Positions 13,684 to 62,046 of a stretch of DNA of 64,000 bases are shown piece by piece. Position numbers and translations under genes: made by a program. The DNA comes from an uncultured Phycisphaerales bacterium (lineage in GTDB: Bacteria; Planctomycetota; Phycisphaerae; Tepidisphaerales; Tepidisphaeraceae), in the NCBI GenBank assembly GCA_963773725.1, contig CAVZCA010000001.1, forward strand, positions 9,843 to 73,842, given 5' to 3'. The first letter of the stretch is position 1. Every line of letters starts with the position of its first letter. Below the pieces are notes generated by a model. The model was not told where the DNA came from. It saw nothing but the letters and a program-made list of their open reading frames with translations, and made no database searches.

Positions 13684-13707
13684 GCAAGAGCAAATCTCAC
13701 TGCCGGC

Positions 13708-13828
13708 AAAAGGCGAGCCCGATTAATATCAGGCAAGCCAACAGTTTTCACGACGGGAAATAATTCCCCCTATTCGAGTCAGGGCCTTCAATCGTCACAA
13801 AAACCGCAACCGATCATCTTCCCAATGA
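13708..13828. repeat. Copy of the dispersed intergenic repeat family (same family as 3391-3654)
   Basis: AAAAGGCGAGCC...CCTATTCGAGTCAGG...CGTCACAAAAACCGCAACCGATCATC aligns with arm 2 of the 3.4-kb palindrome (CAGGCGAGCC...CCTATTCGAGTAAGC...CGTCACGAAAACCGTAACCGATCATC). It contains an internal short inverted copy (AGTTTTCACGACGG). Confidence 0.65.
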
Positions 13829-13851
13829 ATTACCGCGCAGCCCAATTCCTA

Positions 13852-17665: not shown

Positions 17666-20600
17666 ATGCCAACGACTTATTCGAAACCGGATCACGCTGA
17701 TTGCCACGGTGCTCGTGCTGTCGCTCCTGGCGATATTCTGGGGTCCGCCGTCGCGGCTGTTCGATCACAACCTCACCGCCATTCAGAAGACCGATCTCCG
17801 CCCCGGCATCGACATGGTCGGCGGCGTGAGCCTGGTCTATGCGATTCAGGCGGCCAGGCAATACCGATCCCGATCTTGTCCGAGCATGTAATGGAAGCCC
17901 TGAAAAAGCGCGTCGATCCGCTGGGGCTGCGAAACCTCGTCTGGCGTCCGCAGGGCAATGACCGCATCGAAATCGAAATGCCGCTGTCGTCGCGAGGCAA
18001 CCGAAGCCCCGCGCATCAAGCAGGCGTTTAACGAAGCGCAGCAGAAGCTGGATGCGACCAATGTCCGCCAGGACGAGGTCCTCAATGCGGTCGAGCATCT
18101 GACCGGCCCGCAGCGAGATCAGCGGCTTGCCGAGCTGGCGTCGGACGAGCAAGACCCGGGCGGACGCTCTTCAAGAATCTCTCGCAGACGTTCGACCAGA
18201 TCCAGGCAGCTCCGCGCGAATCCGCAAAAGCTGCCGCTGCCGATGCTGGCGGCGCAAGTTGCAGCCGCTGACGGTTGCGTATGACGACTTGAAATTGCAG
18301 ATCGATCAGACCAATCTGTCGCCGGCAGACCTTCAACCGATTCTCGACCAGGTCAATTCCGATGATCCGGACCAGAAAAAGGCCGGGCGACCAGAAGCTG
18401 GACGATCTGAAGAAAAAGTTCGCCGATTTCCCAACGCGGCTGAACGCGATGGACGAATTCCAGGCGAAATACAAGGATTACGATTCGGTCAAGAACGCGA
18501 TCACCGGCGCGGAAGATCTGAAGCGCCTGCTGCAAGGCTCGGGCGTTTTGGAATTCCACATTCTGGCGGACAACGTCACCGCCAATCCAGCGGATTTGAA
18601 GGCGATGGACGCGCGGCTGCAGCCGGGCGGGAAGGGGCCGCTGCCGCAGCCGGGCGACACGATCCGCTGGATGGAAGTGGATCGCCCGGAGGAATTCGAC
18701 AAGCCCGGCGAGCCGCCGGAAACGCACGAATGGAACGGCAAGCATTACATCCCGGTGCTGGTCGACGCCGGACGCCTCGATGACCAAGGCCAGAGCGGCA
18801 AATGGGGGCTGGAGAACGCGCGCGCCGCAGACCATGCAGGATGGCAGCCGGGCGGTCGGATTCAACTTCGACAACACCGGCGGAAATCTTTTCGGCGATC
18901 TCACCACGCACTGGTTCAACGTCGCCAAGCAGCACACGGATGTCGCCGACCCCCATTCGAAGCTGGCGATCGTGCTGGACAACAAGATCATCAGCGCCCC
19001 CAATCTCAATTACGGCGAATCACCGGCGGCTCGGGCGTCATCACCGGCGGCGGCAAGGGCGGATTCACCACGCAGGAACTCGAATTACCTGATCAACACA
19101 CTGAACGCCGGCAGCCTCCCGGCTCAGCTTTCCGATGAGCCGATCAGCGAGCAGCAGGTCGGTCCGACGCTGGGCGCCGACAATCTCTATCGCGGGCTGG
19201 TCGCCTGCGGCTTCGGCCTGATCGTCGTGGCGGTGTTTCTGATCAGCTATTACTACCTCGCGGGAGTGGTCGCGTTCTTCGCCGTGCTGATGAACCTCGT
19301 GCTGATTCTCGGCACGATGTGCGCCCTCAACGCGACGTTCACGCTGCCCAGCATCGCCGGCATCGTGCTGACCGATCGGCACGGCCGTGGACGCCAACGT
19401 GCTGATCTTCGAGCGTCTGCGCGAAGAGCAGCATCAAAATCTTCCGCTTGCGCATGGCCCTGCGCAACAGCTACGCCCAGGCGCAAAGCGCCATCATCGA
19501 CTCCAACATGACCAGCATCATCACCTCGCTCTGTCTCTACGCCTTCGGATCGGAAGAGGTGAAGGGATTCGGCCTGACGCTGATCATCGGCATCGTCGCC
19601 AGCTTGTTCACGGCGCTGTACGTCACCAAGACCATTTTCGGGATCATGATCGACAAGTTCGGCATGAAGCAGCCTCGGCAGCTTGCCGCTGACCTTCCCC
19701 GCATGGGATCGGCTGCTCAAGCCCAAATGGGACTGGATGGGCAAGGCGTGGATCTTCTACACCTTCAGCATCATCATGCTGGCGATCGGCATGACGCTGT
19801 TCGTCGATCAAGGTGAAGCAGGGGCGGATGATGGACATCGAATTCGCCACCGGGACATCGCTCCAGTTCCAGTTGAAGCAGCCGATGGATCAGGACGATG
19901 TGCGCAAGCTCATCGAAGCCGAAAGCCTGAAAGATCCGGTGGCGCTGCCCAGCCCCAAGCGTGGTGGCGGTGGGAACCGACCGGCTGCATTACCAGGTCG
20001 TCGTCGCCCAACGACAAACGAGAAATGGTGCGCAATGCCGTGCTCGAAGCGATGAATGGCAAGCTGCAGCTTCAGCTTCCATCGGAATTCGACAGGCGCG
20101 GAAGCGGATTATCAAAGATGCATCGGACAAAGAGGTGCTGCCGATTTCCAATCGATCGTTTGCGATTGACGGCTTACACCCCGCCCGCGGCTTCGAGCCA
20201 TCCCGGCGGAGTGGCGATCGTGCTGAAGAATATTTCCCCGCCGCTGTCGGTCGATGAAATCACCAAGCGGCTGGACAACCAGCGGCTGTCGAGTTCATCG
20301 GCGAACGACCGGGTCGGTGCAGTACACAGTTGAAGCTCCGGGCGATCCAAGCAAGCCAACCGCGTTTGCCGTCGTCGTCGGATGGAATCCGTCGGTCTCA
20401 TACGAAGCGGATCGGCAAATGGGACGGCGAGCTCGCCGAGCCGCTCTGGGGCCTGGTGAAGGACGCGGTGAATCATCCGCCATCATTCGAGCAGGAAACT
20501 AATTTCGATCCGCAGGTCGCCGGCGAAATGCAGCAGGATGCTTTCCTCGCGCTGGCCTTCTCGATCATCGCGATCATGATTTACATCTGGGTGCGGTTCG

Positions 20601-27591: not shown

Positions 27592-28662
<1,071 letters not shown>

Positions 28663-28679
<17 letters not shown>

Positions 28680-29235
28680 TCTTCAGGTCGCATTAAAAGA
28701 ATGGGCCAGCGTTTGCGGCGCTCTCTCGCAAGGCCGCCAAATCATTCTGCTCCGCAAAGGCGGCATCTACGAATCCGCCGGCGAATTCGAAATTGAGCAT
28801 CGCCAGTTTCTCCTGTTCCCCACTTACCTCCATCAAAACGCCGCGATGCTCAAAGATGAAGAACGAGCTAACTTGGTAAAGCTTTCATCCGAACCAGCGA
28901 AAATCGAAATCTCCCTCGCCGGCGAAATCACCGACATCATTCCAATGACCAATCGCGCGACGATGGATGCTCTGAACGATGAACACATCTGGACGAGCCC
29001 TCTGATCGACATGCGATTCAACTATCGCCCCGAAAATCCCCTTTATCTTTTACTCGTGCGAACCTATCGCCTGACCGCCCCAATAACGATCGAAAACACC
29101 CCAGCCTACGCCGGCTGCAAAAGCTGGGTTCCCCTCGAACACCCCATCAAAACAACCAACGCCACACCAGTCCTAACCGACACCGAATACGCCCAACGAA
29201 GGAACACCATCCTGGACCGAACCTCAACGCTCTAA
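28663..29235 (+). CDS. DUF1802-like conserved protein
   Basis: 190 aa and intact. ALKEWASVCGALSQGRQIILLRKGGI...FLLFPTY. The start overlaps the obg stop. Confidence 0.6.
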
Positions 29236-38330: not shown

Positions 38331-41259
38331 TTGGAGATTGTTTTGGCAAAAGGCATTCGAGTCAACATGTTGGCCAAGGAACTTGGCGTCGAGAGCAAGG
38401 CGATCCTCCAGAAGCTGAAGGGAGAGGGCCTTAGCGACGCCGCTCCCAACCACATGAGCACCTTATCGCTCGGACTGGCCGAGTCGGTGCGCGAATGGTT
38501 CAGCAGCGGCCAACTCGGCGGCGGCGGCACGGCCGTCGAAACCGCGCCGCACGTTGAAGTAGCCAAAACCAAAGCCGCGCCGCGGCAAGAAGAAAGAGGA
38601 AGATGCCGCGCCGCCCGAAGCCGAGATCGAAGAAGAAGCCAAAGCGCCGGTCCCGTCCATTCCCGTGCCGGTTGCCGCCGCCAGCTCCTGCCGGTGCGCG
38701 AAGCCGAGCCGGAGATCGAAACACCTGTCGCGCCGAAGCGCCGCCGGTAGCCAAAGTTTCAGTTGCTCCAGCAGCCGCCTCCCGCTGCACCGCCAGCGGC
38801 GAAGCGCCGCCCGCGCATGTGGAGGTCGCAGTTCCTCCGCCAGCAGTGGAGCCACCGCCGGCGCCACCCGCGCGCCCCGATCGCTCCGCCACCAGCGATG
38901 AAGCCCGCGGCATCAGTTCCGCCGCCAGGCCCTGCCGCGCTCCGCAGCCGCCGGCTCGCCTGGAGTCGAACACATTCGCCCGACGCGCCCGACAGTCACG
39001 CTCGCCAGCCGCGCCGCGGCCCATCAGCCGCCGATCGCAAGCCAGTCGTGCAGGCGCCGCAGCTGACATCGCTTCAACCCGCGAAGATCCAGGGTCCGCG
39101 CGTCGTCCGCATCGAAAAAGAAGAAGCGGTCGTGCAGCCGCGGCCCGCGTCCGCAGCGCGTCCCGCCGCCACCGATTCCCCCGACGTCACCACTCCCGCC
39201 GGCCCGCGCACCGGTCGCGGCGTGAAGGCGACCGACGAGGATGATGAAGAAACAAAGAAGAAAGCCGCCAAGAAAGGGGCCAGCCTTTCCAGCCGCCGCC
39301 GGGGCGTCGATGGCCGCCGCGGCGAAGCGATGGAAAAGCTCAAGGAATTCACCGATGCCGACCTGATCGCCCGCCGCGATGCCCTCAACGCCGCCGCCAC
39401 GTCTCGAAACGTATTCGATAATCACCTTCGCCAGATCGAAAGGCGCGGCACGCACACCCAGGCCAAGACCGATCGTCCAGCGCGGCGAGCCGGTCGCGAT
39501 CGAAGAGCCGATCACCGTTCGCTCCCTCTCCGCGGCCCTGGGCATCAAGACCAACGACATCATCAGCAAGCTGATGAAGCAGCGGCATCTTCGCCACCAT
39601 CAATCAGACCCTCGATCAGGACACCGCCGAAACGCTCGCCCTGGAATTCGGCATCGAACTGCAACATCGCCCAGCAGGCGACGCTGGAAGAAGTCCTGGT
39701 CGGCGAGATCGAAGCGCGCGAGCAGGATCCCGACCAATCTTCAGTTGCGGCCCGCCGGTGGTCACGATCCTCGGCCACGTCGACCACGGCAAGACATCCC
39801 TGCTCGACAAGATCCGCAACGCCAACGTCGCCGCCGGCGAAGCCGGCGGCATCACCCAGCACACCGCCGCCTGGATGGTCGCAACTCGGCCGCCAAGCGC
39901 GTCACCTTCATCGACACGCCCGGCCACCAGGCCTTCACCGCCATGCGCGCCCGCGGCGCGAACATGACCGATGTCGTCGTGCTGGTCGTCTCCGCCGCCG
40001 AAGGCGTTCAGCCGCAGACGATCGAATCGATCAATCACGCCAGGGCCGCCGGCGTGCCGATCGTCGTGGCGATGAACAAGATCGACCGCGCCGATGCCAA
40101 CCCGGACATGGTGCTCGGCCAGCTCGCCAAGGAAGGCCTCAACCCCGTCGAATGGGGCGGCGACACCGAAGTCATCCGCACCAGCGCCACCACCGGCCAG
40201 GGCATTCCGGAACTGATCGAAATCCTCGATCTCCAAAGCCAGATCATGGAACTCAAGGCCGACCCGACCGCCCCGGCGCGCGGCACCGTCATCGAAAGCC
40301 AGATGAACGAAGGCCTCGGCCCTGTCGCCACCGTGCTGGTGCAGGATGGCACGCTGCAAGTCGGCGATATCGGTCTGGCCGGCTCCGGCTTCGGCCGCAT
40401 CCGCAGCCTCCTCAACGACCGCGGCGAGATGATTCCAGAGGCCGGCCCCAGCACGCCGGTCATCGTCAGCGGCCTCAGCGCACTGCCCCAGGCCGGCGAC
40501 AAATTCTACGTGCTGGACGACATGGATCGCGCCCGCGCCATCGCCGAAGAACGCGAATCTCGCCAGCGCCAGACCAGCCTGGCCGGCGCCGAGCCGCGTC
40601 ACCCTCGACAATCTCTTCGACACCATGAAGGCCGAGGAGATCAAGACCATCAACCTGATCATCAAGGGCGACGTGCAGGGCTCCGTCGAAACGCTGGCCA
40701 AGACCGTCACCGATGCCAACACCGACGAAGTGCGCGTCCGCGTGATTCACAGCGCGCGTCGGCGCGATCAACGAAAGCGACGTGGAGCTGGCCGACGCCT
40801 CCAAGGCGGTCATCATCGGCTTCCACGTCGTTCCCGACGAAGCCGCCCGCGCGATGGCCGAGCAGCGCCGCGTCGAAATCCGCCTCTATCGCGTCATCTA
40901 CGAAATCTTCGACGATCTGAAGAAGGCGCTGTCCGGCATGCTCGAGCCGGAAATCCGCGAAAAACTGCACGGCCACGCCGAAGTCCGCAAGGTGTTCAAG
41001 GTTTCCAAGATCGGCAACATCGCCGGCTGCTTCGTCACCGACGGCCACATTCAGCGCGGCAGCAAGATCCGCCTCATCCGCGGCGGCGTCGTCATCACCG
41101 AGGACCTGACCATCGAATCGCTCAAGCGGCTGAAGGACGACGTCAAGGAAGTCAAGGCCGGCTTCGAATGCGGCATCAAGGTCGGCCGGGTACGACGACA
41201 TCAAGGTCGGCGATATTCTGGAAGCCTATATCCGCGAGACGTTCCAGCGAACGCTGTAA
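38331..41259 (+). CDS. infB: Translation initiation factor IF-2, with at least 9 frame changes
   Basis: N-terminal [21 protein letters not shown], a Pro/Ala/Arg-rich linker, G domain [29 protein letters not shown], then domain C2 ...[10 protein letters not shown]...ILEAY. The 39.9-40.6 kb part is intact in one frame. Confidence 0.9.
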
Positions 41260-41279
41260 TTACGCTCGTTCGATTATCC

Positions 41280-41561
41280 ATGACGATCGGCGTATTGCAA
41301 ATGGAGATTTCGATCACCGACGCGATGTCCCTGAAGGACAAGCGCCGGGTGGTCAAGAGCCTCAAGGACCGCATCGCCCACGGGCACAATGTCTCCATCG
41401 CCGAGGTCGGCGCGCTGGACGAGCATCGCCGATCGATCCTCGGCATGGCGATGGTCAGCAACGACGGCCAATATGTCGAAGGGGCCCTGAGCAAGCTGGT
41501 CGATTTCGTGCGGACCGTGCCGCAGGTGACTTTGATGGATTATCAGATTGAATTGTTGTGA
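41280..41561 (+). CDS. DUF503-family protein (commonly between infB and rbfA)
   Basis: [32 protein letters not shown]... Confidence 0.7.
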
Positions 41562-50600: not shown

Positions 50601-51659
50601 TGCTTTGTCTCGAAGCTCATAGGTTTTCGATAATCATCAGGTTGTGAGTAATCGCGCGTAACAAGAGGTCTCTTTTGCGACCCCACGCACCGCGTGATCG
50701 GCAGGCCGAACCGAGATTCCGCTTGACCATGCTATTGACGGTTTCCACTTGCCAGCGTTGCCGGTAATGCCTTAAGTCCCGTTCGTTTTTCATCCGTTGC
50801 CGCATGAGGCGGCGGTAATATCCCGATGGCGGACGTGTTCCCGGCCGTCCGATCGTCGCGGGGATCAGCGAACGAACCTGCAACTCTTGGCGGGCCGCCC
50901 GGTGATTGAATTCAGAGTCGAATCCCGCATCGGCCACCACGAGGCCCAGGCTCATGCGTGATGCGGCACGCCGCAGCAAGGGGACAAACTGCGGGTGATC
51001 GATTCCCAGCCCGGTCGTCGCCCGCGCCGCGAGGATCAGATGCGTCGCGGCGTGCACGGCCAGCGAGAGCTTGGGCAGTCTCTTCACGATCCGGGCGATG
51101 CGGCGATTCGCCCTGAATTTCCGGTGCTTTTTACGGGCTTCGAGCCGACTTTTATTACGCCGCTTATCAAAATACCGGCTCACATGATGCGGCTCGAACA
51201 TGCTGGAGTCTAATGCCGCGAGCCGGTCCTTGGGCCTCGGTTTCTTTTTTTTCGCCGGGGTTGGGCCAACTGGGCCGCATGCACCGACAGGTCCAGCATC
51301 GTCTCAACCATGCGAGGTTTGACCAGCCGATGAAACGCCCGGCATAGTGTGTTGTGATCGGGTACCTTCGTCAGGCCGATATCACGGCACCATTCCGGAC
51401 AGTCCTCCAAGAGCGCTACAATTCCGCGATAACTCTTTTTCTGGTGCTCGCGCAATACCAGACAGGCGAATAGTTGAGGATCCGAAAAATCTTTGCGGCT
51501 GAACCTCGAACGAGGCTTAAGACATGCCTCCCCCAACGCATACGCGGCATTCAATACCTTCCGTGGTGATTTGCAGGTCTCCATCCTGCATCTTTTATCA
51601 ATGGCTCGGACGTCGCGCTACCGAACATGGCCGAACTTGCGAAGGTTTGAGACAAAGCA
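50601..51659 (-). mobile_element. IS5-family insertion sequence (about 1.06 kb)
   Basis: Terminal inverted repeats: TGCTTTGTCTC[G]AA[G]CT at 50601, and its complement AG[G]TT[T]GAGACAAAGCA ending at 51659. These enclose a two-ORF DDE transposase. Confidence 0.75.
50617..51584 (-). CDS. IS5-family DDE transposase in two frames joined at an A8 run (OrfA 51210-51584, OrfB 50617-51201)
   Basis: OrfA reads ...AQLAQPRRKKR. The -1 frame from the A run (CGAAAAAAAAGAAAC, plus coordinates about 51240-51255) reads KKKKPRPKDRLAALDSSMFEP... and gives the AxDSS first-Asp motif, then VVADAGFDSE and ...QRWQVETVNSMVKR. Confidence 0.8.
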
Positions 51660-51721: not shown

Positions 51722-51767
51722 CCTAAAAAAACAAAAAAAATAAGGCCGACCTCAAAAAAGGTCGGCC
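51722..51767 (-). terminator. Strong rho-independent terminator (minus strand)
   Basis: GGCCGACC-ttttt-GAGGTCGGCC followed by TTATTTTTTTTGTTTTTTT on the minus strand. Confidence 0.7.
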
Positions 51768-51770: not shown

Positions 51771-51847
51771 TGCCCAGGACAGGATTTGAACCGGACCACT
51801 GACCCCTTCTGGTGGCCGAAAAGTGCGTTTTCAGCCTGAAAATGGGC
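51771..51847 (-). other. tRNA-like 3' fragment (T-loop plus acceptor-like end), not a foldable tRNA
   Basis: The minus strand reads ...GGTCCGGTTCAAATCCTGTCCTGGGCA. It has a canonical GTTCAAATC T-loop, but only 3 of 5 T-stem pairs, 5 of 7 acceptor pairs with GCCCATT, and no D or anticodon arm. Confidence 0.25.
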
Positions 51848-51848
51848 G

Positions 51849-51884
51849 ATACCTGCAACTTCGAAATCAATACCTGCAAGTTCG
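51849..51884. repeat. Two 15-bp direct repeats with 21-bp spacing
   Basis: ATACCTGCAACTTCG (51849-51863) and ATACCTGCAAGTTCG (51870-51884). Confidence 0.7.
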
Positions 51885-51956: not shown

Positions 51957-52406
51957 CTATTTTGTGAAAGCCGGCGAACCCTGCTGACGTTTTACTTGTG
52001 TTACAGAACATCGAGCTACTAGAACGTGTGAAACCTGCCTCCTTTTTAATGCGATTTTTGAGAAGTCCGCTACAAGTTGAAGGGGGGGCAGCTTCATTAT
52101 TTCTTGACCTTTGCCGTTCAGAATTTCTAGGGAGGCTCCCGGCCCCACAATGATGCTTCCAATCTTCGCGACCTTTTCGCGCTCACCCAGACCTAATCGC
52201 CGGCCACGCCCGCAGAAGGTCTTCCCTTCAAAGAGATGAACCCAAGAATCACCTCTTATAATCCGGAGTCGCATGAGACCTCTCCATGGCGTGCCGCGGT
52301 AAAGGTAGCGGTCGCTGTCCCTATAACGACGAAAGTCCGTCGGTGTATCGCATGGAAGCAAAATATTTACGCAATCGAATCGCTCTAGCGGTAAATCGAT
52401 CGACAT
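51957..52406 (-). CDS. Hypothetical protein downstream of the kinase
   Basis: 149-aa ORF, same strand, 42 nt after the kinase stop. WVHLFEGKTFCGRGRRLGLGE...IGSIIVGPG is faintly beta/gamma-crystallin-like. No firm motif. Confidence 0.3.
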   Translation of the reverse strand: MSIDLPLERFDCVNILLPCDTPTDFRRYRDSDRYLYRGTPWRGLMRLRIIRGDSWVHLFEGKTFCGRGRRLGLGEREKVAKIGSIIVGPGASLEILNGKGQEIMKLPPLQLVADFSKIALKRRQVSHVLVARCSVTQVKRQQGSPAFTK

Positions 52407-52448
52407 TAGTGACTTAAGGAAATTGATTCGAGGGCGATGGAGACGTGT

Positions 52449-54527
52449 TTATTGATTGTTTCGCTCGACCGATTCGCAAACCACGCGAAATCCTACTGTA
52501 GGCAACGACACGTCGGCTGGATAATGCGTTTCCAGTTTTATCGGTACGAGCCAATCTGATTCGGGGGTCAAATAGTCTGCGCCCACAGCGATGTAAGATA
52601 GTTCGTTTGTTCCGCTGGCGTGACTCACCGAATTAGAGGCATGGATCGGCAGATCGGAACACCACTGTCTGACTTCGCCGATCATGTCATACAGACCCAA
52701 CTGATCTGGCAGCTCTTGTGCAACCGGCCGAAAATGCCGGCCATTGCCGTTTGCGTACGAAGTTTCGCTTTCAAGGTTTTTTTGCGTCACTGGGCGCGAT
52801 TCTCCGCTGTAAAACGCGTACTGCCATTCAGATAGAGTGGGTAGCCGATAGTGGCGTCGTTCTCTTTTGCTGAGTTCAGCGCAAAATTCCACGGCTTGAA
52901 TCCAAGTGACGCATTGAACGGGCGCGTCCAGGCCGATCAGATTATGGTCAGAGGGGTTCTGGCCCATCACCCGAAGGTACTCGCGCTGAGTAACTGGCGT
53001 GGCGGACATGTAAAACGACCGGTCGGACCGAACGTAGGGTCTGCTCAGCCAGTCAGCTTCGTTGGGCGGGATCGGGAGGTCTCCGATGGGTATGGAGCCA
53101 GCGGGGATTCTCACAAATCGCATATTTTCGTCATTAATGAATGACAATTGGGAGGTGACTGTCGGAGATGAATCGAAGGAGTGCACACAAAGCGCTGTAA
53201 GCGTGGCGAGAACCAAAATTGCACGCGAAACGAATGAAAGGCGTCTTTTGGTGGACTTCGTTTTGCCCGCGAGGACAGATTCCAAGTCACGAGCCATAAC
53301 GCCAGCAGACCGGTATCGCCCATCAGGGGTCTTGCATAACGCCTTAAGCACAATTTCTTCGAGAAAGGAACTGACCGCAATCCCATTTCGTCGCGCCACG
53401 CGAACGAGCGGCGCAGGGGTGGCCGTTGCCATTTGCTGTAAAATGGTGCGGAGTTCACCAGCGAAAGAGTAGGGGAATTCGCCCGCGAGAGCGGTGTACA
53501 ACATCACGCCGATGGCGTAAATGTCACTCCGAGCATCGATTCGATCCGGAGAAGAAAAGAGCTGTTCCGGGCTCGACCAGGGCAATGAACCGAGCATTTG
53601 GCCGGTTCGCGTCAACGCGGCGTGCCTTTGCTCGCCTATATCCTCGGAATCATGCAACAGGCGAGCCATTCCAAAATCCAGAATATGTGGCTCGCCTTGG
53701 TTATCCACGACGATGTTCATCGGCTTTAGGTCGCGATGGATTACGCCGCTTTGGTGTGCTCCATCAACCGCTTTAGCAATCTTGACGAACGTTTGAATAA
53801 TTAAAACGGTGTCCTTTTCCGACTCCTGAACAAAGCGGTCCAAATTACGTCCATCAATGAAATCCATGACCAGAAAAAAAGAACCATCCAAAGTTCGACC
53901 TTTATCCAGGATGCTCACGATGTTCGGATGATTCAAACGCGCCAAAATCGCGGATTCTCTCTCAAATCGTTTTCGTCCTCTAAATCCCACGTGCGGACCG
54001 CCATGCATAATCTTCATTGCGACAACGCGACCGGTTCTTTCCTGGATCGCTTTAAATACAGTGGCTTGGCCTCCTGCGTTAATTTCACTTTCTAGGCAAT
54101 ATCCGTGAATTCGAAGGCCGTTGAAGAGATTGATTCTGGTTTGAGATTGATCAGAGTCATTGGGATGGTCGTCTGAGGAGTCCTTAATGGGATCGATCGG
54201 AAGCCCTGCTACCGACTCTGCCGGACGCGCAACAATGGTCTGGTGAATCAAATCAAGTGCATTGAGTTCGTCGCGCAAATATGGCATTACTTCTGGGTGC
54301 CTAGCAATCACATCCTCGCTGCGAATTATTTCCCCACTAGCCCGTCGCTGCACCACGTCACAAATAATTTTCGAAAGCTTATCCTCGTACTCTCCCGAAC
54401 TCTTGGGTGATTGTGGATTAGCCAAACGACTTGCCGGCGCTGAAATTCGTTGTCGAACGTTTGCATCCGGAGACTCGGGCATAGGCAATCCTGTGGTCAG
54501 GTTATCCAGTTTATGGCCGTCAAACAT
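52449..54527 (-). CDS. Membrane Ser/Thr protein kinase with an extracytoplasmic formylglycine-generating-enzyme (FGE/SUMF1-type) domain
   Basis: 692 aa and intact. GGQATVFKA...VAMKIM, HRDLKPMNIVV, DFGMARL, TM ILVLATLTALCV, then FVRIPAG...YRLPTLSEWQYA...GLYDMIGEVRQW...GFRVVCE. Confidence 0.85.
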   Translation of the reverse strand: MFDGHKLDNLTTGLPMPESPDANVRQRISAPASRLANPQSPKSSGEYEDKLSKIICDVVQRRASGEIIRSEDVIARHPEVMPYLRDELNALDLIHQTIVARPAESVAGLPIDPIKDSSDDHPNDSDQSQTRINLFNGLRIHGYCLESEINAGGQATVFKAIQERTGRVVAMKIMHGGPHVGFRGRKRFERESAILARLNHPNIVSILDKGRTLDGSFFLVMDFIDGRNLDRFVQESEKDTVLIIQTFVKIAKAVDGAHQSGVIHRDLKPMNIVVDNQGEPHILDFGMARLLHDSEDIGEQRHAALTRTGQMLGSLPWSSPEQLFSSPDRIDARSDIYAIGVMLYTALAGEFPYSFAGELRTILQQMATATPAPLVRVARRNGIAVSSFLEEIVLKALCKTPDGRYRSAGVMARDLESVLAGKTKSTKRRLSFVSRAILVLATLTALCVHSFDSSPTVTSQLSFINDENMRFVRIPAGSIPIGDLPIPPNEADWLSRPYVRSDRSFYMSATPVTQREYLRVMGQNPSDHNLIGLDAPVQCVTWIQAVEFCAELSKRERRHYRLPTLSEWQYAFYSGESRPVTQKNLESETSYANGNGRHFRPVAQELPDQLGLYDMIGEVRQWCSDLPIHASNSVSHASGTNELSYIAVGADYLTPESDWLVPIKLETHYPADVSLPTVGFRVVCESVERNNQ

Positions 54528-55137
54528 AGAGTGAGACAGAACGCAATTCCACGCGGAGAGATTTCAGAGCCCGCTTACAGAGATTCGCCGCTGATGCCCG
54601 CGTGCGATTCATCTGTCTGGCGACTTCAGGGACATCCAATCCGCTCAGGTGTCGCAGCCTCAACGCCTCGGCTTGATCACGAGGCAGCCGCTGGATCGCA
54701 CTGTCTAAGGCCGCCATCAGTTCATGGCTCACGGCCGATTTGCTGGGAGTCCTTAGATAAACTGCCATCTCCGCAAGCAGCCGAGCCATAGACGCATCGT
54801 CACAGCTTCTGTGCAACAGATATCGCGTATTTTTGCGTTTCGAAGTCCGAATGTATTTAAGATGATCCAATATTTGACGGCGTGCGATCGTCACGAGCCA
54901 GCGAAAAACCGGATCGGGGCCTTCGGGGCGAAATCCAGACACGCCGCTGATCGCCTTCAACCAAATATCCTGCAAAATGTCCTCGGGTTCGAGCCAATCT
55001 TTAAGTGCCTTTGGAAAATGTGACTGCAAATAGGCACTTAAGCCATTGTGGTGGCGATATAGCAACATTTCCACGGAAGCCAAGTCGCCTTGAACAGCTT
55101 TGGAAATCAATAGTGATTCATCTCCTATTGGCGACAT
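54520..55137 (-). CDS. ECF-type RNA polymerase sigma factor (kinase-linked, ECF43-like context)
   Basis: 205 aa. Region 2 EDILQDIWLKA...FRWLVTIARRQILDHLK. Region 4 LPRDQAEALRLRHLSGLDVPEVARQMNRTRASAANLCKRALKSLR. An 8-nt overlap with the kinase start. Confidence 0.85.
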   Translation of the reverse strand: MSPIGDESLLISKAVQGDLASVEMLLYRHHNGLSAYLQSHFPKALKDWLEPEDILQDIWLKAISGVSGFRPEGPDPVFRWLVTIARRQILDHLKYIRTSKRKNTRYLLHRSCDDASMARLLAEMAVYLRTPSKSAVSHELMAALDSAIQRLPRDQAEALRLRHLSGLDVPEVARQMNRTRASAANLCKRALKSLRVELRSVSLYV

Positions 55138-55453
55138 GGACAGCTACTGGGATACCGGGGCTGGGCTATCCCTGCAAGAAAACCGTTTAAACTCAACAGT
55201 TATTCCGCGGCAACCTGAGCCGTCCCTCGTATGCGTCGAGCACACATAGAGGGTTAATGCTGTTGAACTGAGAGCCCGGTTCGGCTCGCCGTGCGCTACC
55301 GCCACATAGTCGATTTCGGCCATGTCCATCAAACACATGTTCGTCCACCGCGCTTTCATCTAGATCCGATTCGCCTAACTATTTTTTTCGGAAAAGTAGA
55401 GAATCGGTGATACGACTTGCCTGAAATTTCGTTTAGGTGGTTGAGAGACATCA

Positions 55454-57058
55454 ATGAACACGACTTCTTCATTCCACAAAACTAAGTTCACCGTAGCAGC
55501 TATTTTTATCGCGGTCCTGCCTATGGCAGCCTGGGACATTTGGGCAGAGCAACAGCGCTCGCTTACACCCGACATCATCGCTACCGAATCCAGGCACACC
55601 GTCACGACGGAAGTAATTCGTTCTCAGCCGGCTACTGACCGCGTTCGCGAATTGAGCCCTAAGTATTTGCTCCAAATCCATTCGACTCGCTTACCAGAGC
55701 TGCAGGCATGGGCGACCAATTGGGAATCCGAAACCTCGGTGCACCTATCACATTTGTCTGAATTGATCGCGAAGAGCGATTTGTCTGCTGTGGAATGTCT
55801 GCAAATCGGCGAGTTGATCGCTCATGACGAGGGATATCCTGCGGGGAAGGTTTGGATCACGGCGGGCTATCAAAGAGCAGTCACTCTGACGGCGAACGAC
55901 GAAGAAAATCGGAATTCACTAAATTCATTAGTCTCCGCGATGGTGTCTGCTGAGAACCATTTGCACGGGCGTGTGGACGCCGCGCCGCTTCTGGAACAGT
56001 TAACCGCATTTATCATTCATTTTAGCTCGACAAATAAATGGGATCAGACCTCCAAATGGGGACGGATACACCACGTAGACGCACTCCTATTGGAAGGCCG
56101 GAATATAGATGCCAAAGTAGAGGCAGAAGCGATGGATCGAGATGCGAAAGGCAATCCACATTGGGACTCTAAACTGAAATCAGAATTGAAGCTGCTTAAA
56201 GCCCGAATTCCTTTCGAACCCGAGGCACATTCACCGCTGGATGTGCTGAACCTTCATCATCCGGAACCAAAGGAGCTCCTTGCGTGGTTTGCAGCCCAAC
56301 AGGCCGCTCAAACAAACAACCAAGGCACCGGCGACGAAGCAGTTTTGGATATGACCCAGTCAAGTCTATTAATCCTTGTCGAAAAGAGTGATTTATCCAG
56401 TCTGGAATGTCTTCGTATTGCCGAGTTGATGGCTGACGGACCAGATGCATCCGATGCCGAAGTATTTGCCTCAGTGGGCACCGATAGGGCGCTCACCGAT
56501 CTAAAGAACCTGTCAGACGACGATGTTCGGGCGAGACCAATGCTTAACGCTCTGAAGCGTATGGAGCAACGGCTGTGGGAATCACCCGCTGGCGAAATTG
56601 ACCGCGGTGTGACGCTGGAAAAAATAAACCGCATGCTAATGCGATTCGCGCGGGAAAACCCCTGGGATCAAACGCTCGAATGGGCGCGAATTGGACATGG
56701 GGAGGCTCTGTATATGCAGCATCGGTATTCTGAGGCGCTCACCGAGGCAAATCAACTCGCGATTGACTCGGCAACCGACGACCACTTCACGCGTCAAGAA
56801 AAAAGCGGAATCAACTGGCTTCAAGCGTTGTTGTTATTCGATACGGGTCGCTTTGCGGAAGCCGTTCCTCATCTAGAGGCCACAGCCACCTGTACGGGTT
56901 TTGCTCACGCCAGAGATGCATGGCCAATGTGGGCGGTCGCACTCGCCAAGTCTGGAGATTCAGCGCGTGCGAATCGGGTATTCGACGATTGGATTCGCCA
57001 AAAACGTCCACCCATTGATGCCGCCGCACATGTGCTGGAGGCGATACAAGGTCATTAA
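55454..57058 (+). CDS. N-terminally anchored protein with an internal ~200-aa duplication and a TPR-like C-terminus
   Basis: 534 aa and intact. Anchor FTVAAIFIAVLPMAAW. Paired modules ...IAKSDLSAVECLQIGELIA...NKWDQTSKWGRIHH... and ...VEKSDLSSLECLRIAELMA...NPWDQTLEWARIGH... Confidence 0.5.
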   Translation: MNTTSSFHKTKFTVAAIFIAVLPMAAWDIWAEQQRSLTPDIIATESRHTVTTEVIRSQPATDRVRELSPKYLLQIHSTRLPELQAWATNWESETSVHLSHLSELIAKSDLSAVECLQIGELIAHDEGYPAGKVWITAGYQRAVTLTANDEENRNSLNSLVSAMVSAENHLHGRVDAAPLLEQLTAFIIHFSSTNKWDQTSKWGRIHHVDALLLEGRNIDAKVEAEAMDRDAKGNPHWDSKLKSELKLLKARIPFEPEAHSPLDVLNLHHPEPKELLAWFAAQQAAQTNNQGTGDEAVLDMTQSSLLILVEKSDLSSLECLRIAELMADGPDASDAEVFASVGTDRALTDLKNLSDDDVRARPMLNALKRMEQRLWESPAGEIDRGVTLEKINRMLMRFARENPWDQTLEWARIGHGEALYMQHRYSEALTEANQLAIDSATDDHFTRQEKSGINWLQALLLFDTGRFAEAVPHLEATATCTGFAHARDAWPMWAVALAKSGDSARANRVFDDWIRQKRPPIDAAAHVLEAIQGH

Positions 57059-57084
57059 ATAAGTTCCGATGTCGGCTTGGCAAA

Positions 57085-58229
57085 ATGATGGCTTCGTACT
57101 GTGCTGGCGCTATAGCTGGAGACCCAATGTGGCATATGACACCATCGCTTCGGCACAAGGTAGCTATCTTAGCTATCTTCATCTTTCTCCCCGGCGTTTC
57201 GGCCTATCTATGGGCAAACTATCATCCCGGTCCCGCGTCGCAGCCGGGGAGCGTCTTGGATATTGCAGGGTTGCATGTCTCCAAGGCGGTCATTGATATC
57301 GGGACGGTCTGGTCGGGGGGCCAGAACGTTCAAAGAGATTTCCATTTAGAAAATGGGACCGGACGGGATATCCGAGTTGAGTCCGTCACGTCGGACTGCG
57401 GCTGCACCGTTGCCAATGCTAGTGGCGGCGAAATCGCAAACGGGCACTCAACGGCAATACATGTTGTATTTTGGCCCCCGACGGTTGCGAACGATCAGGG
57501 GGGCCAATTTCGGCGCACTATTTCGGTCGTGGTAGACACATTCAGTGGCCAGCAGTCGATTCCGCTGATCCTGACCGGATTCGTAGAGCCAGATGAATCA
57601 CTGCACGTTTTTCCAGTTAACTTAGAGCTGGAAGGCCCCTATCCAACGACCAGGCCGTCGGCCATTCTACACTTCAAAGGGTCGGCATCACTGCTTAGAA
57701 ACATTCCGGACAAACTCTCTATTTCTGCTGGCCAGAGTCAACGAGTGCTTGTCCCAGATTCACCAGTCAGCAACCCTGACAAGATTGATACAAAGGATGT
57801 CCAAATCGAACTGACGCAAATCCCAGCCCAGACGAGAACTGGAATTCTACGATCGTCTTTGCTCCCGATCAGCTATCGGATGGCTTAACGATTCATGTAC
57901 GCGGCCATACACCACAGGCCATCGAGATTAACCCTCAAAGTGTGATTCTTACGGACAGCGTGGAATCTCGCGACGCAACCGTAAACCTTACGAACAAAAA
58001 TGGTGTTCCCATTATTCCGGAATCAATTCACACCGACTTGCCACTGATATTGGACTTTCTCCCAGAATCTGGAATCGGCCATGATTCCCGTGCTCTACAC
58101 ATGCATGTTAAGGGACCGCTGACTCAGGACCTTTCCGGACGAATACTGATTAGCTTACGCACCGGATCCGCAAGGACCGAATCTGTCTCGATTCCCGTCG
58201 TAATCCTTCGAGAAGGAAAATCCAGTTGA
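57085..58229 (+). CDS. DUF1573-domain protein, with a probable frame change near 57840
   Basis: Anchor VAILAIFIFLPGVSAYLW. DUF1573 core IDIGTVWSGG...FHLENGTGRDIRVESVTSDCGCTV. A second Ig-like part continues in ORF 57942-58229. Confidence 0.65.
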
Positions 58230-58279
58230 TGGATAAGAGCAAAATTCTAGACCAACCCTCTACTCAGGAGATTTCTATC

Positions 58280-58611
58280 ATGCGTCAGATTCAACCGTTC
58301 ACCGCGCGTGTCTGCGTTTTTGTAGTCGCTTCAATATTCGCTCTGCGGCTCTTCGCCGCGCCGCCCTCGAACACGGAATGCCAGGCAAGCGGGGGTTGCT
58401 CGTTCCCATGTACCAGCGCGGGTGGACAAAGGCAAATCTCATCAGCGCATCACAACTTGCACAGTGCAGTCCGTCATATATGTCAAATTGTCCATCTTCG
58501 GGTTCCTATGGAGTTTGCGGGGTGTACTACACTTACTCGGCTCCGAACTGCGATCCTGCGGCGATCGAAGACTCGAATTACGACTACAACTATTACTGCT
58601 CCGGAAATTAA
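58280..58611 (+). CDS. Small secreted Cys/Tyr-rich protein (8 Cys in the predicted mature part). It requires one frame change near 58400-58435.
   Basis: AGGAG and the ATG at 58280 give signal peptide MRQIQPFTARVCVFVVASIFALRLFA, then APPSNTECQASGGCSFPCTSAGG. The adjacent frame continues ...KANLISASQLAQCSPSYMSNCPSSGSYGVCGVYYTYSAPNCDPAAIEDSNYDYNYYCSGN, with the stop at 58609-58611. Confidence 0.45.
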
Positions 58612-58719
58612 AACGCGTGATTTTCGCCGAGCCATCAGGAGGCAATCGCATCCTGTAAGAAATGGCAGAAACTCAGGAATTAGTCTGCGACCGATTTGCA
58701 ATCGGCACGGAGAGACCCG

Positions 58720-59781
58720 ATGAAAATATCACCTCATTTATCTGGTTGTTTCGTCGCCTGCGCGATCCTGATCGGGAAGATTTCAAATTGTTCAGCGGAC
58801 ACTTTGGAACGTGCCGCGATCGCAGCTCATCAGGATGAACTTCAAAACCTAATGATGTACTGCGACGAATCGCGATCGTATGACGTGAATCCGGCCTGGG
58901 CGGCGCAAGAGCCTCCGAATTTTCGACAACCGAAAGTCGATTTGAAGAGGGTGGAGACATCCAGCCTCAGATTCATGTTTTTGAGCGGTAGTGCATGCTA
59001 CGACCGAGAGACAGATGCGAAAACTTTAAGCTATTGGGCCGCGAAGGGTCTGCCGGCGATTGCGAGGCAAATCCAAACGATCACTTCAACCGGTCGAATC
59101 GAGGAATTGACGCAGCAGCGACTTGCAAATGGTAAGCGACCGAGTTTTGGCGGACTGCGGCAGCTCAGTGAGTTCTCACCAGAGGTCACAATCGACGTGG
59201 CTATGGGTCTTCGGTTTCTGGGCGGACGCCAATGGGTGACCAAAGATGACCTCAATTCCATGCAGGAAATTCAGGCAGCGGACTCGAGATTCGTCATTCT
59301 CCATTCGCTTGACGGCGGCGGACATGTCCATGAATTGCGTTACGACAAACAGCTTCTTTACGCGCTGATCTATTACCGATGTAGCAATTCGCAAGGCGCA
59401 TCAGTTGAAATAGTGAACTCCGATTTCCGCCGGTATGGCAACGTCTTTTTGCCTGGCAAGATAGTGCGGACTTCAAATATCGTGGACTCCGGGGGCAAAA
59501 TACATCATCCCCTGATATTCACGTTCACAGTCAAAGATGCGTCAGTAAATGATCCAAAAAACACACCCGATCTCTACTCAATTGCATGGCCGGCTCATTT
59601 GCAGCTTTTTGATGCGAGGACAAACGATCGAATTGAAGTGGGACCATCCACCCGTCCTTTCACGGATGAAGATATTCGTCAGCAGCTTGCCGAGAATCGT
59701 GTTCGGAAATTGATGCTTGAAGGGATGGCTGCGGATCGCATTCAACGTATTTTGAGTAACCAGCCAACTACCAGGCCATGA
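58720..59781 (+). CDS. Hypothetical secreted protein
   Basis: Intact ORF. N-terminal MKISPHLSGCFVACAILIGKISNCSA is signal-like. No recognised catalytic motif. Confidence 0.45.
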   Translation: MKISPHLSGCFVACAILIGKISNCSADTLERAAIAAHQDELQNLMMYCDESRSYDVNPAWAAQEPPNFRQPKVDLKRVETSSLRFMFLSGSACYDRETDAKTLSYWAAKGLPAIARQIQTITSTGRIEELTQQRLANGKRPSFGGLRQLSEFSPEVTIDVAMGLRFLGGRQWVTKDDLNSMQEIQAADSRFVILHSLDGGGHVHELRYDKQLLYALIYYRCSNSQGASVEIVNSDFRRYGNVFLPGKIVRTSNIVDSGGKIHHPLIFTFTVKDASVNDPKNTPDLYSIAWPAHLQLFDARTNDRIEVGPSTRPFTDEDIRQQLAENRVRKLMLEGMAADRIQRILSNQPTTRP

Positions 59782-59799
59782 AGAGGAAAGATATTTGCC

Positions 59800-60336
59800 A
59801 TGACTATGGTGAAGACACTTGAAATATCAGCACGAGTAGCGCTTGCAGCAACCTTCCTTTATGCAGCCGCATCGAAAATATTGCATAGCGAGCCAGTTCA
59901 AGAACCAGCCACGATTTTCGCACAATGGTCTTATCATCATCCGCAAGCCCGTTACGGCCTGATCGCCGCAGAATTGGCTTTGGCTGCGTGGCTATTCTCT
60001 GGAGTCAAATCAAGTGTCGCAGGTTTATTAGCTTTAGCACTCATTTCCGCTTTCACGGGCCTGCTGATTCTGGAATTGCAAAAGAAAAACCCCCGGCCTT
60101 GCGGCTGCACGGGGAGTCGGATGATCGCTCCCGATTCAAATGGAATTCGAACATCGCTTCAAATTGACGCGATCCGCAACGTGATCCTTATCGCGTGTGC
60201 GGGATGGCTTTACCTCTCTGTGCGGATTCATAAAAGTGCCACAATCGTGTGGGAAAGTGAAAGTCTTGCGAAGAATGACCCACGGAAAAGAATAAACGTG
60301 GGACGCTCAAAACCCCCTCGCCCATGCGAACTCTAG
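59800..60336 (+). CDS. MauE/DoxX-family membrane protein
   Basis: 178 aa with four hydrophobic helices. RVALAATFLYAAASKI and a PCGCTG motif, as in the MauE CGC motif. Confidence 0.6.
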   Translation: MTMVKTLEISARVALAATFLYAAASKILHSEPVQEPATIFAQWSYHHPQARYGLIAAELALAAWLFSGVKSSVAGLLALALISAFTGLLILELQKKNPRPCGCTGSRMIAPDSNGIRTSLQIDAIRNVILIACAGWLYLSVRIHKSATIVWESESLAKNDPRKRINVGRSKPPRPCEL

Positions 60337-60420
60337 GTGTGCGTCGAAACTTGCGGCCTTAATGATTCCCTGAATATACTTGCGTATCGAGTGGAATCGT
60401 GAGCAAGATGCAGGAGACGT

Positions 60421-60645
60421 ATGCCACGCCGTGTAATAATGCGCATTGAACTCGATCAGTTGGCAAGGAATAAATACACCGAATTGCCAGATTTGAGAGG
60501 CATGACGCAGTTGGCCATAACAAGCAGGCTGATTGAATGGTTTCTAGAGCAATCGGTGGAGTTGCAAGCAGCAATCTTGGGGCTTTATCCGACCGATAAG
60601 CATGATTTGACGAAAGCAGTTTTGAAAGCATTTCTCTCGAAATAA
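60421..60645 (+). CDS. Small hypothetical protein
   Basis: 74-aa ORF in the low-GC island. No motif. Confidence 0.25.
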   Translation: MPRRVIMRIELDQLARNKYTELPDLRGMTQLAITSRLIEWFLEQSVELQAAILGLYPTDKHDLTKAVLKAFLSK

Positions 60646-60840
60646 AGACAGGACCCTGTCGGCGTGGCCCATATTACAATTGCGGTGAACCGCTCATGGC
60701 TCGATGCGTTGGCCATTTTTGCAATTCCGCCATGCATGATTATTTCGTTGGCCATAACGGCAAGTTCGCTCGGCCATTTCTAGCCTTCAAGATAGCGTTT
60801 TCTCTCTGAAAAAAGAGGAGACGCGATTACGAGGGTCGAG

Positions 60841-62046
60841 ATGAAAACAGTAATTCTTTCACGGAAGCAACTCTTTGAAGAGGTCTGGACTACGCCGATG
60901 CGGACTCTGGCACACCGCTATGGTCTATCGGATGTTGGATTAGCCAAGGTCTGTCAGCGACATGACATCCCGCTCCCGCCAGTTGGTTACTGGGCAAAGA
61001 AGGAAATTGGCAAAGCTCCCGCTCAAACGCCTCTCCCACGAAACAACGACCCGAAGATACAGCAGATCAAACTCTGGGACGGACCGAAACCAGAGCCTGC
61101 TCCGGAACCGCCCCAGGAGTATGACCAGGATATTCAGGCGATGCTGGATCGAGCGATGTCTCTGACGCCGGTAACGGTTGCCAGCACGCTCCATAACCTG
61201 CATCCATTGATTCGACGGACGCGCAAAGCGCTGGAACGTCAGACCTATGAGCTGCATGGGCTGGTTTCAGCGAGCGGCATGCGAACCGATCCAATCGTCG
61301 AAATAACTGTCGCGAAATCCAACGTTCGCCGGGCACTCCTATTCATGGACGCTCTGTTCAAAGCCGTCGAGAAGGTGGGTGGAACCATCAAAATTGAGAA
61401 GCTTGCTCAGTGGCAGCCAGACGTGGCAGTCATTCGCATCGCTGAAATCGTTATTGGCGGCGTGCGTCTTCGTGAACGATACAAACAGGTACGACGGATG
61501 GAGGATGGTACGAATCGCTGGACGTATCCGAGTCACGACTACCATCCAACCGGACGGTTCGTGCTGGATCATGCGCCACCCAGTTATGACAAACCATTCT
61601 GCGAGGACGGTGAGAAATCTGAACGCAGCATTGAAGGCCAGATTAATAAGGTAATTATCAAATGGATTAATGAGGCCGGACAGACCCGCATCAGGCAGAG
61701 GCAAGAAGAAGAGGCGCGGCGAATCCGCGCAGAACAAGAGCGTATACGCCAGGAAAGAGAAGCCGATCTGAAACATCGTCGAGACGAATTAATCCGACAA
61801 CAGAAGACGGAGCAAAGCAGGGTCGATCAATTGCTAAACGAGGCAGAAAGCTGGCAACGCAGCCAAGTTCTGCGTTCGTATCTCGCCGCTATTGAAGACT
61901 TGTTGGCCAAACGACCGCAGCCATCTGCGGCGGATAGCGAGACGGCTGCATGGATTCGCTGGGCACATCAGCAGGCAGACCGACTCGATCCACTGAAGCT
62001 ATCGCCAGCCTCAATTCTCGATCAGAAGGTGAACGCTGAGCAATAA
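60841..62046 (+). CDS. Conserved hypothetical protein with an N-terminal HTH-like module and an Arg/Glu-rich coiled coil
   Basis: 401 aa and intact. LFEEVWTTPMRTLAHRYGLSDVGLAKVCQRHDIPLPPVGYWAKK is a recurring N-terminus of uncharacterised island-borne proteins. RQRQEEEARRIRAEQERIRQEREADLKHRRDEL is the coiled coil. Confidence 0.45.
   Translation: MKTVILSRKQLFEEVWTTPMRTLAHRYGLSDVGLAKVCQRHDIPLPPVGYWAKKEIGKAPAQTPLPRNNDPKIQQIKLWDGPKPEPAPEPPQEYDQDIQAMLDRAMSLTPVTVASTLHNLHPLIRRTRKALERQTYELHGLVSASGMRTDPIVEITVAKSNVRRALLFMDALFKAVEKVGGTIKIEKLAQWQPDVAVIRIAEIVIGGVRLRERYKQVRRMEDGTNRWTYPSHDYHPTGRFVLDHAPPSYDKPFCEDGEKSERSIEGQINKVIIKWINEAGQTRIRQRQEEEARRIRAEQERIRQEREADLKHRRDELIRQQKTEQSRVDQLLNEAESWQRSQVLRSYLAAIEDLLAKRPQPSAADSETAAWIRWAHQQADRLDPLKLSPASILDQKVNAEQ

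Follow-up and report, generated by a model that had tools for sequence, protein, structure and literature searches.

Two described bacterial systems, EcfP/PknT of Vibrio parahaemolyticus and EcfK/PknS of Xanthomonas citri, consist of an extracytoplasmic function (ECF) sigma factor encoded beside a transmembrane Ser/Thr kinase (STK) with a variable extracytoplasmic sensor domain; neither includes an anti-sigma factor. Their targets are polymyxin resistance or the type VI secretion system (T6SS). STK-linked ECF groups without anti-sigma factors form an established class (PMC7826278). Direct phosphorylation has been demonstrated for EcfP and EcfK, members of group ECF43, in which the acidic DxxD of sigma region 2.2 is swapped for uncharged residues with a phospho-acceptor Thr (QTTA) (PMC13147305). 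Here we analyzed a 64-kb stretch of DNA from an uncultured Phycisphaerales bacterium (contig CAVZCA010000001.1; the whole stretch is referred to as the window), in which an ECF sigma factor and a kinase of this general kind lie opposite an envelope operon in a conserved block of about 8.7 kb. The predicted targets differ from those of EcfP and EcfK: an oxidative-folding operon and the gene of a cytoplasmic protein, p105. With roughly half of our confidence, we read the block as an inducible module, switched by the sigma factor and kinase, that is dedicated to the oxidative folding and handling of one clade-specific disulfide-rich peptide.

On the envelope side, MauE and MauD were originally known for the methylamine dehydrogenase small subunit MauA. 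MauE homologues have been found to take the place of DsbB in E. coli by means of a CXC motif that lies in the loop between transmembrane helices (TM) 3 and 4, are probably quinone-linked, and share a conserved Phe-Gly following the CXC, a Lys in TM1 and a Glu in TM2 (bioRxiv 10.64898/2026.03.05.709764). The MauE protein of the block resembles these DsbB-like enzymes, which work with MauD/DsbA partners, in its Pfam membership, its four helices and a CGC in the TM3-TM4 loop, and its gene also lies beside that of a small Cys-rich exported protein, a possible oxidation substrate. It differs from the known MauE systems in lacking a thioredoxin-fold gene nearby (none was found in the block by Pfam and NCBIfam scans), in having an Ig-fold DUF1573 protein as putative partner, and in carrying a residue other than Phe after the CXC. 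The proposed logic, a quinone-linked membrane oxidase with a periplasmic shuttle bearing a short Cys motif, is that of the DsbB-DsbA and VKOR-thioredoxin pairs. Unlike in those pairs, the proposed shuttle is an Ig-like CGC domain (UGC in selenoprotein relatives) rather than a thioredoxin, and the pair would be inducible, operon-linked to one substrate and found in one clade.

Two further proteins of the block have described counterparts. The kinase shares its architecture with other planctomycetal kinases that carry an FGE-type domain; unlike them, it is tied to one defined sigma factor and to a predicted two-promoter regulon. Among the accessory domains of planctomycetal STKs, FGE (the sulfatase-modifying factor) is reported to rank third in frequency, and in single-pass kinases it mostly lies in the periplasm (PMC11032199), so the build of the kinase is in itself ordinary. 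An exported 353-residue protein has a fold likeness to the half-barrels of LolA, LolB and RseB, in a periplasmic and ECF-controlled context like that of RseB/MucB. It differs from them in its extra long terminal helices and in belonging to no sequence family; its match to MucB is poor (Foldseek probability 0.1-0.2), and there is no anti-sigma factor here for it to bind. Each part is of a known kind. The literature searched held no description of their combination, of the two-promoter regulon predicted here or of the pairing of MauE with DUF1573.

The conserved block and its relatives

The features of the block, by position in the window, are as follows.

51957-52274, minus strand: p105, a cytoplasmic protein of about 105 residues without a signal peptide, conserved downstream of the kinase
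52323-52349, minus strand: ECF-type promoter-like motif GATAC-N15-TCGTTAT, upstream of p105; the site at 55409-55435 is the sole other match in the window
52449-54527, minus strand: Hanks-type Ser/Thr kinase, 692 residues (Pkinase 138.3 bits; FGE-sulfatase 85.7 bits, cut-off 23.3)
54520-55137, minus strand: ECF sigma factor, 205 residues, with only the sigma2 and sigma4 domains and without region 3
55409-55435, plus strand: ECF-type promoter-like motif GATAC-N15-TCGTTTA, its 3' end 18 nt before the ATG of the first operon gene
55454-57058, plus strand: anchored helical-repeat protein, 534 residues, with an N-terminal anchor, a duplicated module of about 200 residues and a TPR-like C-terminus
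57085-58229, plus strand: signal-anchored DUF1573 protein bearing an Ig-like domain (Pfam 50.9 bits, cut-off 26.1), frameshifted here
58280-58611, plus strand: small secreted protein, 110 residues when repaired, with a signal peptide, 8 mature Cys and a Tyr-rich tail, frameshifted here
58720-59781, plus strand: exported 353-residue protein, predicted LolA/LolB-like half-barrel between long N- and C-terminal helices, no Pfam match
59800-60336, plus strand: MauE-family membrane protein, 178 residues, four TM (Pfam MauE 70.7 bits, cut-off 27)
60421-60645, plus strand: small open reading frame (ORF) of 74 residues, conserved nearby in loci L003, L005, L008, L016, L017 and L018, no family

Scans of genome and metagenome collections gave 16 related loci, and look-ups of the closest proteins gave two further ones (related loci carry labels of the form L017). 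Those with a name come from metagenome-assembled genomes of Tepidisphaeraceae and 'Phycisphaerales', many of them peat-derived, and the block is restricted to a few uncultured peat and soil Planctomycetota of the Tepidisphaerales/Phycisphaerae lineages. Among 5.8 billion proteins, the 353-residue LolA-like protein had 33 homologue clusters, each at least 52% identical.

Gene order was kept in all contigs with enough flank (L002-L010, L015, L017 and L018): p105, kinase and sigma factor on one strand, and DUF1573, peptide, LolA-like protein and MauE on the other. Protein identity was 44-66% in most loci, so the shared order does not simply reflect recent common descent. The conserved unit spans about 51957-60645, with flanks that differ even among the closest relatives; in all loci, homology to the window began at about 51960-52040 and stopped at about 60230-60670. 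L017 and L018 showed 74% nucleotide identity across the block, yet homology ended at the same borders. Comparison of these sequences indicates that the unit of conservation is the block and not the surrounding region.

A first-pass annotation of this DNA had proposed one system made of the sigma factor, the kinase and a five-gene plus-strand operon, whose families should co-occur in order. The constant order in related loci, beside unconserved flanks, bears out that expectation. All of its members were found, and two conserved genes, p105 and the 74-residue ORF, had been overlooked. The 316-bp divergent gap between the sigma gene and position 55454 is exact, as is the 8-nt overlap of the sigma gene with the gene of the 692-residue kinase.

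Family scans of the block returned few additional functions. No block protein matched an anti-sigma family (Pfam, NCBIfam and PHROGs scans), and the absence of an anti-sigma gene noted at first pass holds for every neighbor scanned. No family was found in Pfam, NCBIfam or PHROGs for p105, the 74-residue ORF, the 353-residue protein, the peptide or a 401-residue neighboring protein. RNA families and tRNA genes were likewise absent from within the block.

Sigma factor, kinase and promoter-like motif

The block sigma factor scored 42.4 bits to Sigma70_r2, 41.4 bits to Sigma70_r4_2 and 80.8 bits to TIGR02937 (cut-off 42.9). With only the sigma2 and sigma4 domains and about 200 residues, it is an ECF (group 4) sigma-70 factor. 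Its best NCBIfam match was TIGR02984 (Sig-70_plancto1) at 113.5 bits, under the cut-off of 183.75, which places it nearest a planctomycete-specific subfamily, unlike ECF43. As in ECF43, a Hanks-type kinase is encoded alongside and no anti-sigma factor is. The sigma2.2 motif is acidic, E50-P-E-D-I-L-Q-D57, where EcfP and EcfK have QTTA, and E-[PT]-[EQ]-D-x-x-Q-D was aligned in all 8 orthologues. The likeness to ECF43-type sigma factors drawn on at first pass therefore does not hold at this site, and membership of ECF43 was rejected because the acidic sigma2.2 is retained; for the same reason an EcfP-type switch cannot simply be transferred to this sigma factor. A conserved Ser/Thr-rich basic linker (R-T-S-K-R-K-N-T-R and R-T-P-S-K-S) could hold phosphosites, by analogy with T106 of EcfK.

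The kinase was correctly described at first pass as having an FGE/SUMF1-type extracytoplasmic part, as its domain scores show. It consists of a cytoplasmic kinase domain with HRDLKP and DFG motifs, one TM at about residues 437-457 and an extracytoplasmic FGE-sulfatase-type domain at residues 470-683. Orthologues were 49-52% identical, with the exception of a frameshifted locus (L004) whose best segment reached 40%. Among solved structures, the ectodomain comes closest to T. denticola variable protein 1 (2y3c), PvdO and PorK/GldK, which are non-enzymatic or non-FGE members. No Cys is present from 'RQWCSD' to the terminal 'GFRVVC', as read directly and not from an alignment to a true FGE; we take this stretch to be where FGE sequences have their catalytic Cys pair.

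Alignment of the intergenic regions of related loci revealed a bipartite motif with a fixed spacing of 15 nt. Exactly two sites were present in each locus covering both positions (21 sites in 11 non-redundant loci), and the positions were constant, one ahead of the first plus-strand operon gene and the other ahead of p105. In the larger subclade the motif reads GTGAG-N15-TCGT(T/C)NA; the window and the two loci closest to it have GAT[AG]C-N15-TCGTT[AT][AT], and here too each has exactly two sites. Loci with the exact 12-base form, GTGAG-N15-TCGTTAA, had one or two copies of it, only at those positions over up to 21 kb and both strands, where about 0.003 copies per locus would be expected by chance. 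Once one change in the -10 half was allowed, every locus covering both positions had two sites. The fixed 15-nt spacing, an unconserved spacer and a -10 half containing CGT make this motif typical of ECF promoters.

The motif and the sigma factor varied together. Between the subclades the -35 half differed at both sites at once (GTGAG versus GAT[AG]C), and the fixed differences in the sigma factor clustered in the recognition helix of region 4.2 (RTRASAANLC versus R[TS][ES]GS[VI]SMLC), while the -10 half and sigma2 were unchanged. In L005 both sites, at 8225-8251 (+) and 5313-5287 (-), carried the -10 variant TCGTCAA, most others having TCGTTAA or TCGTTAT and a single L015 site TCGTTGA; we read the L005 pair as a second case of concerted change at two sites. 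The joint changes, few as the independent events are, follow the pattern expected if the block sigma factor reads both promoters. We know of no kinase-linked ECF sigma factor of Planctomycetota with a defined regulon; here a motif, two targets and a natural swap of -35 half and sigma4 are predicted.

The first-pass annotation had suggested that the sigma factor drives the plus-strand operon and that an ECF-type motif should lie between the divergent genes, at 55138-55453. The upstream motif that co-varies with region 4.2 supports the former, with the amendment that the predicted regulon also includes the cytoplasmic p105. As for the latter, a motif was found there on the plus strand and none faces the sigma gene. 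The specific candidate that had been named, GGAAT-N16-CGG at 55181-55207 (-), was rejected, since it is not conserved in the nearest relatives L017 and L018.

No copy of the motif was found upstream of the sigma gene in the loci compared. By eye, four loci of the other subclade have a candidate housekeeping-type promoter of the sigma gene, TTGAAC-N16-TATGCT, and the window has a weaker TTGCAG-N17-TATCCC at 55149-55177 (-); we make no claim for either. A generic scan for sigma-70 promoters and terminators gave no more matches than chance.

The envelope operon and its possible function

The first operon gene encodes the 534-residue anchored protein. The duplicated module noted at first pass is real (30% identity over about 200 residues, E 4e-25), and the TPR-like helices were seen only as matches under the Pfam cut-offs. 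A full-length orthologue lies at the same place in L008, L009, L010, L017 and L018. Other loci have a relative sharing the C-terminal 200-240 residues, after MauE or after p105, and in every case one of the two motif sites precedes this movable gene.

The DUF1573 protein, whose true start is probably at 57127 or 57136, also matched NF041425 (OS_HP2 (seleno)protein, E 6.6e-9). DUF1573 selenoprotein forms have UGC at the CGC site (PMC9312934, PMC13188914), which marks the domain as redox-active. The DUF1573 domain and CGC motif reported at first pass are both present, and DCGCT is invariant in all orthologues; the ORF itself is broken in the window. As the block has no thioredoxin-fold gene, the DUF1573 protein would be the obvious candidate for a periplasmic shuttle.

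The small secreted protein had been described as one with a signal peptide, 8 Cys and a Tyr/Asn-rich tail. It is a single ORF in the relatives, and no single ORF of the window encodes it. Four of the five pairs compared gave it a dN/dS of about 0.05-0.09, and none of its 8 Cys varies between loci; together these argue for a real gene under strong purifying selection. The most conserved part is an invariant ASQ..xCSP (residues Q-C-S-P-S at 58447-58461), resembling the FGE substrate motif C-x-P-x-R minus the Arg. Most orthologues have no Trp in the mature part.

The 353-residue secreted protein was reported correctly, and its fold is a new observation. An AlphaFold2 (AF2) model with a mean confidence (pLDDT) of 80.2 matched LolA3 (9tp6), a DUF1329 protein (4z48) and LolA (2w7q/4ki3) with a Foldseek probability of 1.0 and target-normalized template modeling (TM) scores of 0.46-0.60. 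According to this model the protein has a LolA/LolB-like fold, outside the sequence family.

The last operon gene, as previously noted, encodes a MauE/DoxX-type membrane protein with a PCGC motif. PCGC in the TM3-TM4 loop was invariant in 11 orthologues, and the first two helices have an invariant Lys and Glu, candidates for the published TM1 and TM2 residues. A word-indexed search for distant MauE contexts gave only 4 close matches. No MauA, MauB, MauD or MauG family was found among the block proteins (Pfam, NCBIfam) and the peptide is not MauA-like; membership of a mau cluster was therefore rejected. The role in disulfide maturation suggested at first pass gains from the experimental finding that MauE homologues are DsbB-like oxidases; that the peptide is matured in this way we infer.

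On the opposite strand, p105 lay behind the kinase in every locus covering that position, with 45-69% identity. The listed ORF of 149 residues at 51957-52406 (-) overextends it, conservation beginning only at Met45. A profile of eight orthologues gave 13 weak matches in PDB, 7 of which (six distinct proteins) were beta-gamma-crystallins aligned on the same Greek-key-like stretch. The best were 3enu/3ent, which we take to be nitrollin, at a weak E of 0.017, followed by 2dad, 2k1w, 3hz2 and 2bv2. From these profile matches, p105 is a probable single beta-gamma-crystallin-like domain, and from its upstream motif it is the second predicted target of the sigma factor.

We propose the following scheme. 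The sigma factor and kinase would be co-transcribed from the candidate housekeeping-type promoter and not from the ECF-type motif. The kinase would sense an extracytoplasmic cue through its putatively non-catalytic FGE-type domain and activate the sigma factor, most likely by phosphorylation, though not by the sigma2.2 charge switch of ECF43. Active sigma factor would then fire two promoters of the form (-35)-N15-TCGTT(A/T)(A/T), before p105 and before the envelope operon. Among the operon products would be a secreted peptide with 8 Cys, about 80 residues long in its mature form. MauE, with CGC as its active site, would serve as a DsbB-like quinone-linked thiol oxidase, and DUF1573, a membrane-anchored periplasmic Ig-fold protein with a redox-type CGC, as a DsbA-like shuttle. 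The LolA-like protein may act as a carrier that chaperones or delivers the product, the 534-residue protein as a TPR-like scaffold, and p105 would be co-induced in the cytoplasm.

If true, this scheme would add a dedicated form, inducible and linked to its substrate, to the newly reported MauE pathway. DUF1573 is a widespread domain of unknown function, and its position beside MauE and a single obvious Cys-rich substrate makes it a test case for a thiol-disulfide shuttle. The sequence-predicted sigma-promoter system could be rebuilt in E. coli. The clade concerned is narrow and uncultured, and whatever is said here past gene content and motifs we infer.

Several observations weigh against the proposed scheme. 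The sole mechanistically understood phospho-switch is inapplicable, since the sigma factor keeps its acidic sigma2.2 motif, and in essence a single -35 event and a single -10 event underlie the covariation. To our knowledge, characterized MauE, DsbB and VKOR proteins use thioredoxin-fold partners, a role in which DUF1573 is not known. After the MauE CXC the usual Phe is replaced by Thr, Ser, Met or Ala, with the Gly present. The LolA-like match is moderate, with a query-normalized TM score of about 0.33. The AF2 model of the peptide (pLDDT 43.5) is unusable and no disulfide pattern can be derived from it. Finally, two operon genes are frameshifted in the window.

Unlikely, in our judgment, is a general envelope module for oxidative folding or stress repair, in which MauE and DUF1573 serve many substrates, the LolA-like and TPR-like proteins handle lipoproteins or lipids, and the peptide is an accessory (structural, metal-binding or a redox buffer) instead of the cargo. 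Such a role would suit MauE as a proposed generalist oxidase (bioRxiv 10.64898/2026.03.05.709764), the acyl chains or hydrophobic ligands that LolA-fold proteins mostly carry, and the envelope stress to which ECF systems classically respond. The distribution of the peptide argues for a dedicated module instead: 1.84 billion representatives, searched exhaustively with a profile, yielded no more than 7 relatives, and the peptide gene lies within the operon in every locus. By these sequence searches, the small protein appears confined to this cluster. A housekeeping oxidase would also be unexpected on a variable, possibly island-borne and lineage-limited block.

An autocrine loop is a long shot. 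Here the FGE-type domain of the kinase would recognize the 8-Cys peptide as its ligand by way of the CSP block, and peptide production would feed back on the operon; in a bacteriocin variant the peptide would be a toxin and the other proteins would serve export or immunity. FGE-type domains bind Cys-x-Pro peptides, the CSP block is the most conserved part of a secreted and clade-specific peptide, and the ectodomain has the Cys-free stretch described above. Against this, the Arg of CxPxR is absent, family scans of the block turned up neither a transporter nor a protease or immunity-type gene, and the idea has motif resemblance alone as its basis.

We also consider it improbable that the sigma factor and kinase are mere neighbors of the operon and that the motif is bound by another regulator, such as the 74-residue protein, or by a different sigma factor. 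The sigma gene has no motif copy ahead of it, and the 74-residue ORF is conserved nearby. That ORF varies in position and orientation between loci, however, and is not always co-oriented with or adjacent to the operon. The ECF-typical spacing, spacer and -10 half, together with a -35 half that changes along with the 4.2 helix, argue for the block sigma factor as the reader of the motif.

The two frameshifts were compared with the related loci. The DUF1573 ORF of the window ends at 57888 and its C-terminal third resumes in another frame at 57942-58229, with a 7-nt gap after 57832 relative to the nearest relatives. In the peptide gene, one frame (from 58280) encodes the signal peptide with the first 3 Cys and another (to 58611) the remaining 5 Cys with the Tyr/Asn tail, one base being missing after 58431 relative to L017 and L018. 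Orthologues were single ORFs in all related loci (DUF1573 369-381 residues, peptide about 110 residues). Elsewhere in the window infB (GTP_EFTU, IF-2; 38763-41551), obg (GTP1_OBG, MMR_HSR1; 27678-28696) and secDF (18127-19511) are also split over overlapping frames. Between the window and L017, 41 of 55 differences in the peptide gene fell at third codon positions, and this bias persisted past the shift. Because these other genes are split and the codon bias persists, the two frameshifts are most probably assembly indels and not biology, as judged from the sequence comparison. Programmed frameshifting in both genes was rejected, given that the relatives are in frame and infB, obg and secDF are split too. 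An indel-prone assembly calls for caution in any ORF-based reading of the window. Very little speaks for a block decaying through true inactivating mutations in this genome: there are two frameshifts within 600 bp, one of them a 7-nt gap and no homopolymer slip, the NCBI record calls a shifted 164-residue product (P0036) and an insertion sequence (IS) transposase adjoins the block, but essential genes are likewise split, the third-position bias is retained and the remaining block genes are all full length.

The left flank and neighboring elements

One further feature lies at the left edge of the block.

51771-51884, strand not assigned: left boundary element, a 22-nt copy of a tRNA-Leu 3' end and two direct repeats; possible att-type junction

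The tRNA-Leu copy is at 51771-51792 and the 15-nt direct repeats, ATACCTGCAA[CG]TTCG, are at 51849-51863 and 51870-51884. In L017 the same elements are present at both ends (2140-2368 and 13665-13900) of an 11.4-kb segment carrying the whole cluster. Copies of a 136-nt direct repeat (95% identity) flank it on both sides, and the right copy runs into an intact tRNA-Leu(GAG). The signature was absent from loci other than the window and L017, and no integrase or recombinase was found in L017 or in the flank of the window. These junctions suggest that the block in L017 and the window is an integrated element, which would explain the unconserved flanks. A bolder extension, to which we give little credence, is that the block is a mobile tRNA-Leu-island cassette with its own sensor, sigma factor and promoters, in which DUF1573 and MauE form a non-canonical pair and the peptide's CSP is read by the FGE domain in an autocrine manner.

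Directly left of the tRNA fragment, at 50617-51584 (-), two adjacent ORFs with DDE_Tnp_1 and DUF772 domains make up an IS5-type transposase, which is probably frameshifted too. The one site of note from the generic promoter and terminator scan was a strong T-tract hairpin of 10 pairs, including 7 G-C, at 51744-51767 (-), some 190 nt past the p105 stop. The matching hairpin in L017 sits just downstream of tRNA-Leu, and the structure may belong to the chromosome flank instead of to p105.

To the right of the block, the 401-residue neighbor at 60841-62046 (+) has a helical C-terminal half rich in Glu, Arg and Gln, and it is not conserved beside the cluster elsewhere. No tRNA genes were found in the window. 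The sole Rfam family above its gathering score there was a SAM riboswitch (RF00162) at 7474-7586 (-), with 86.7 bits.

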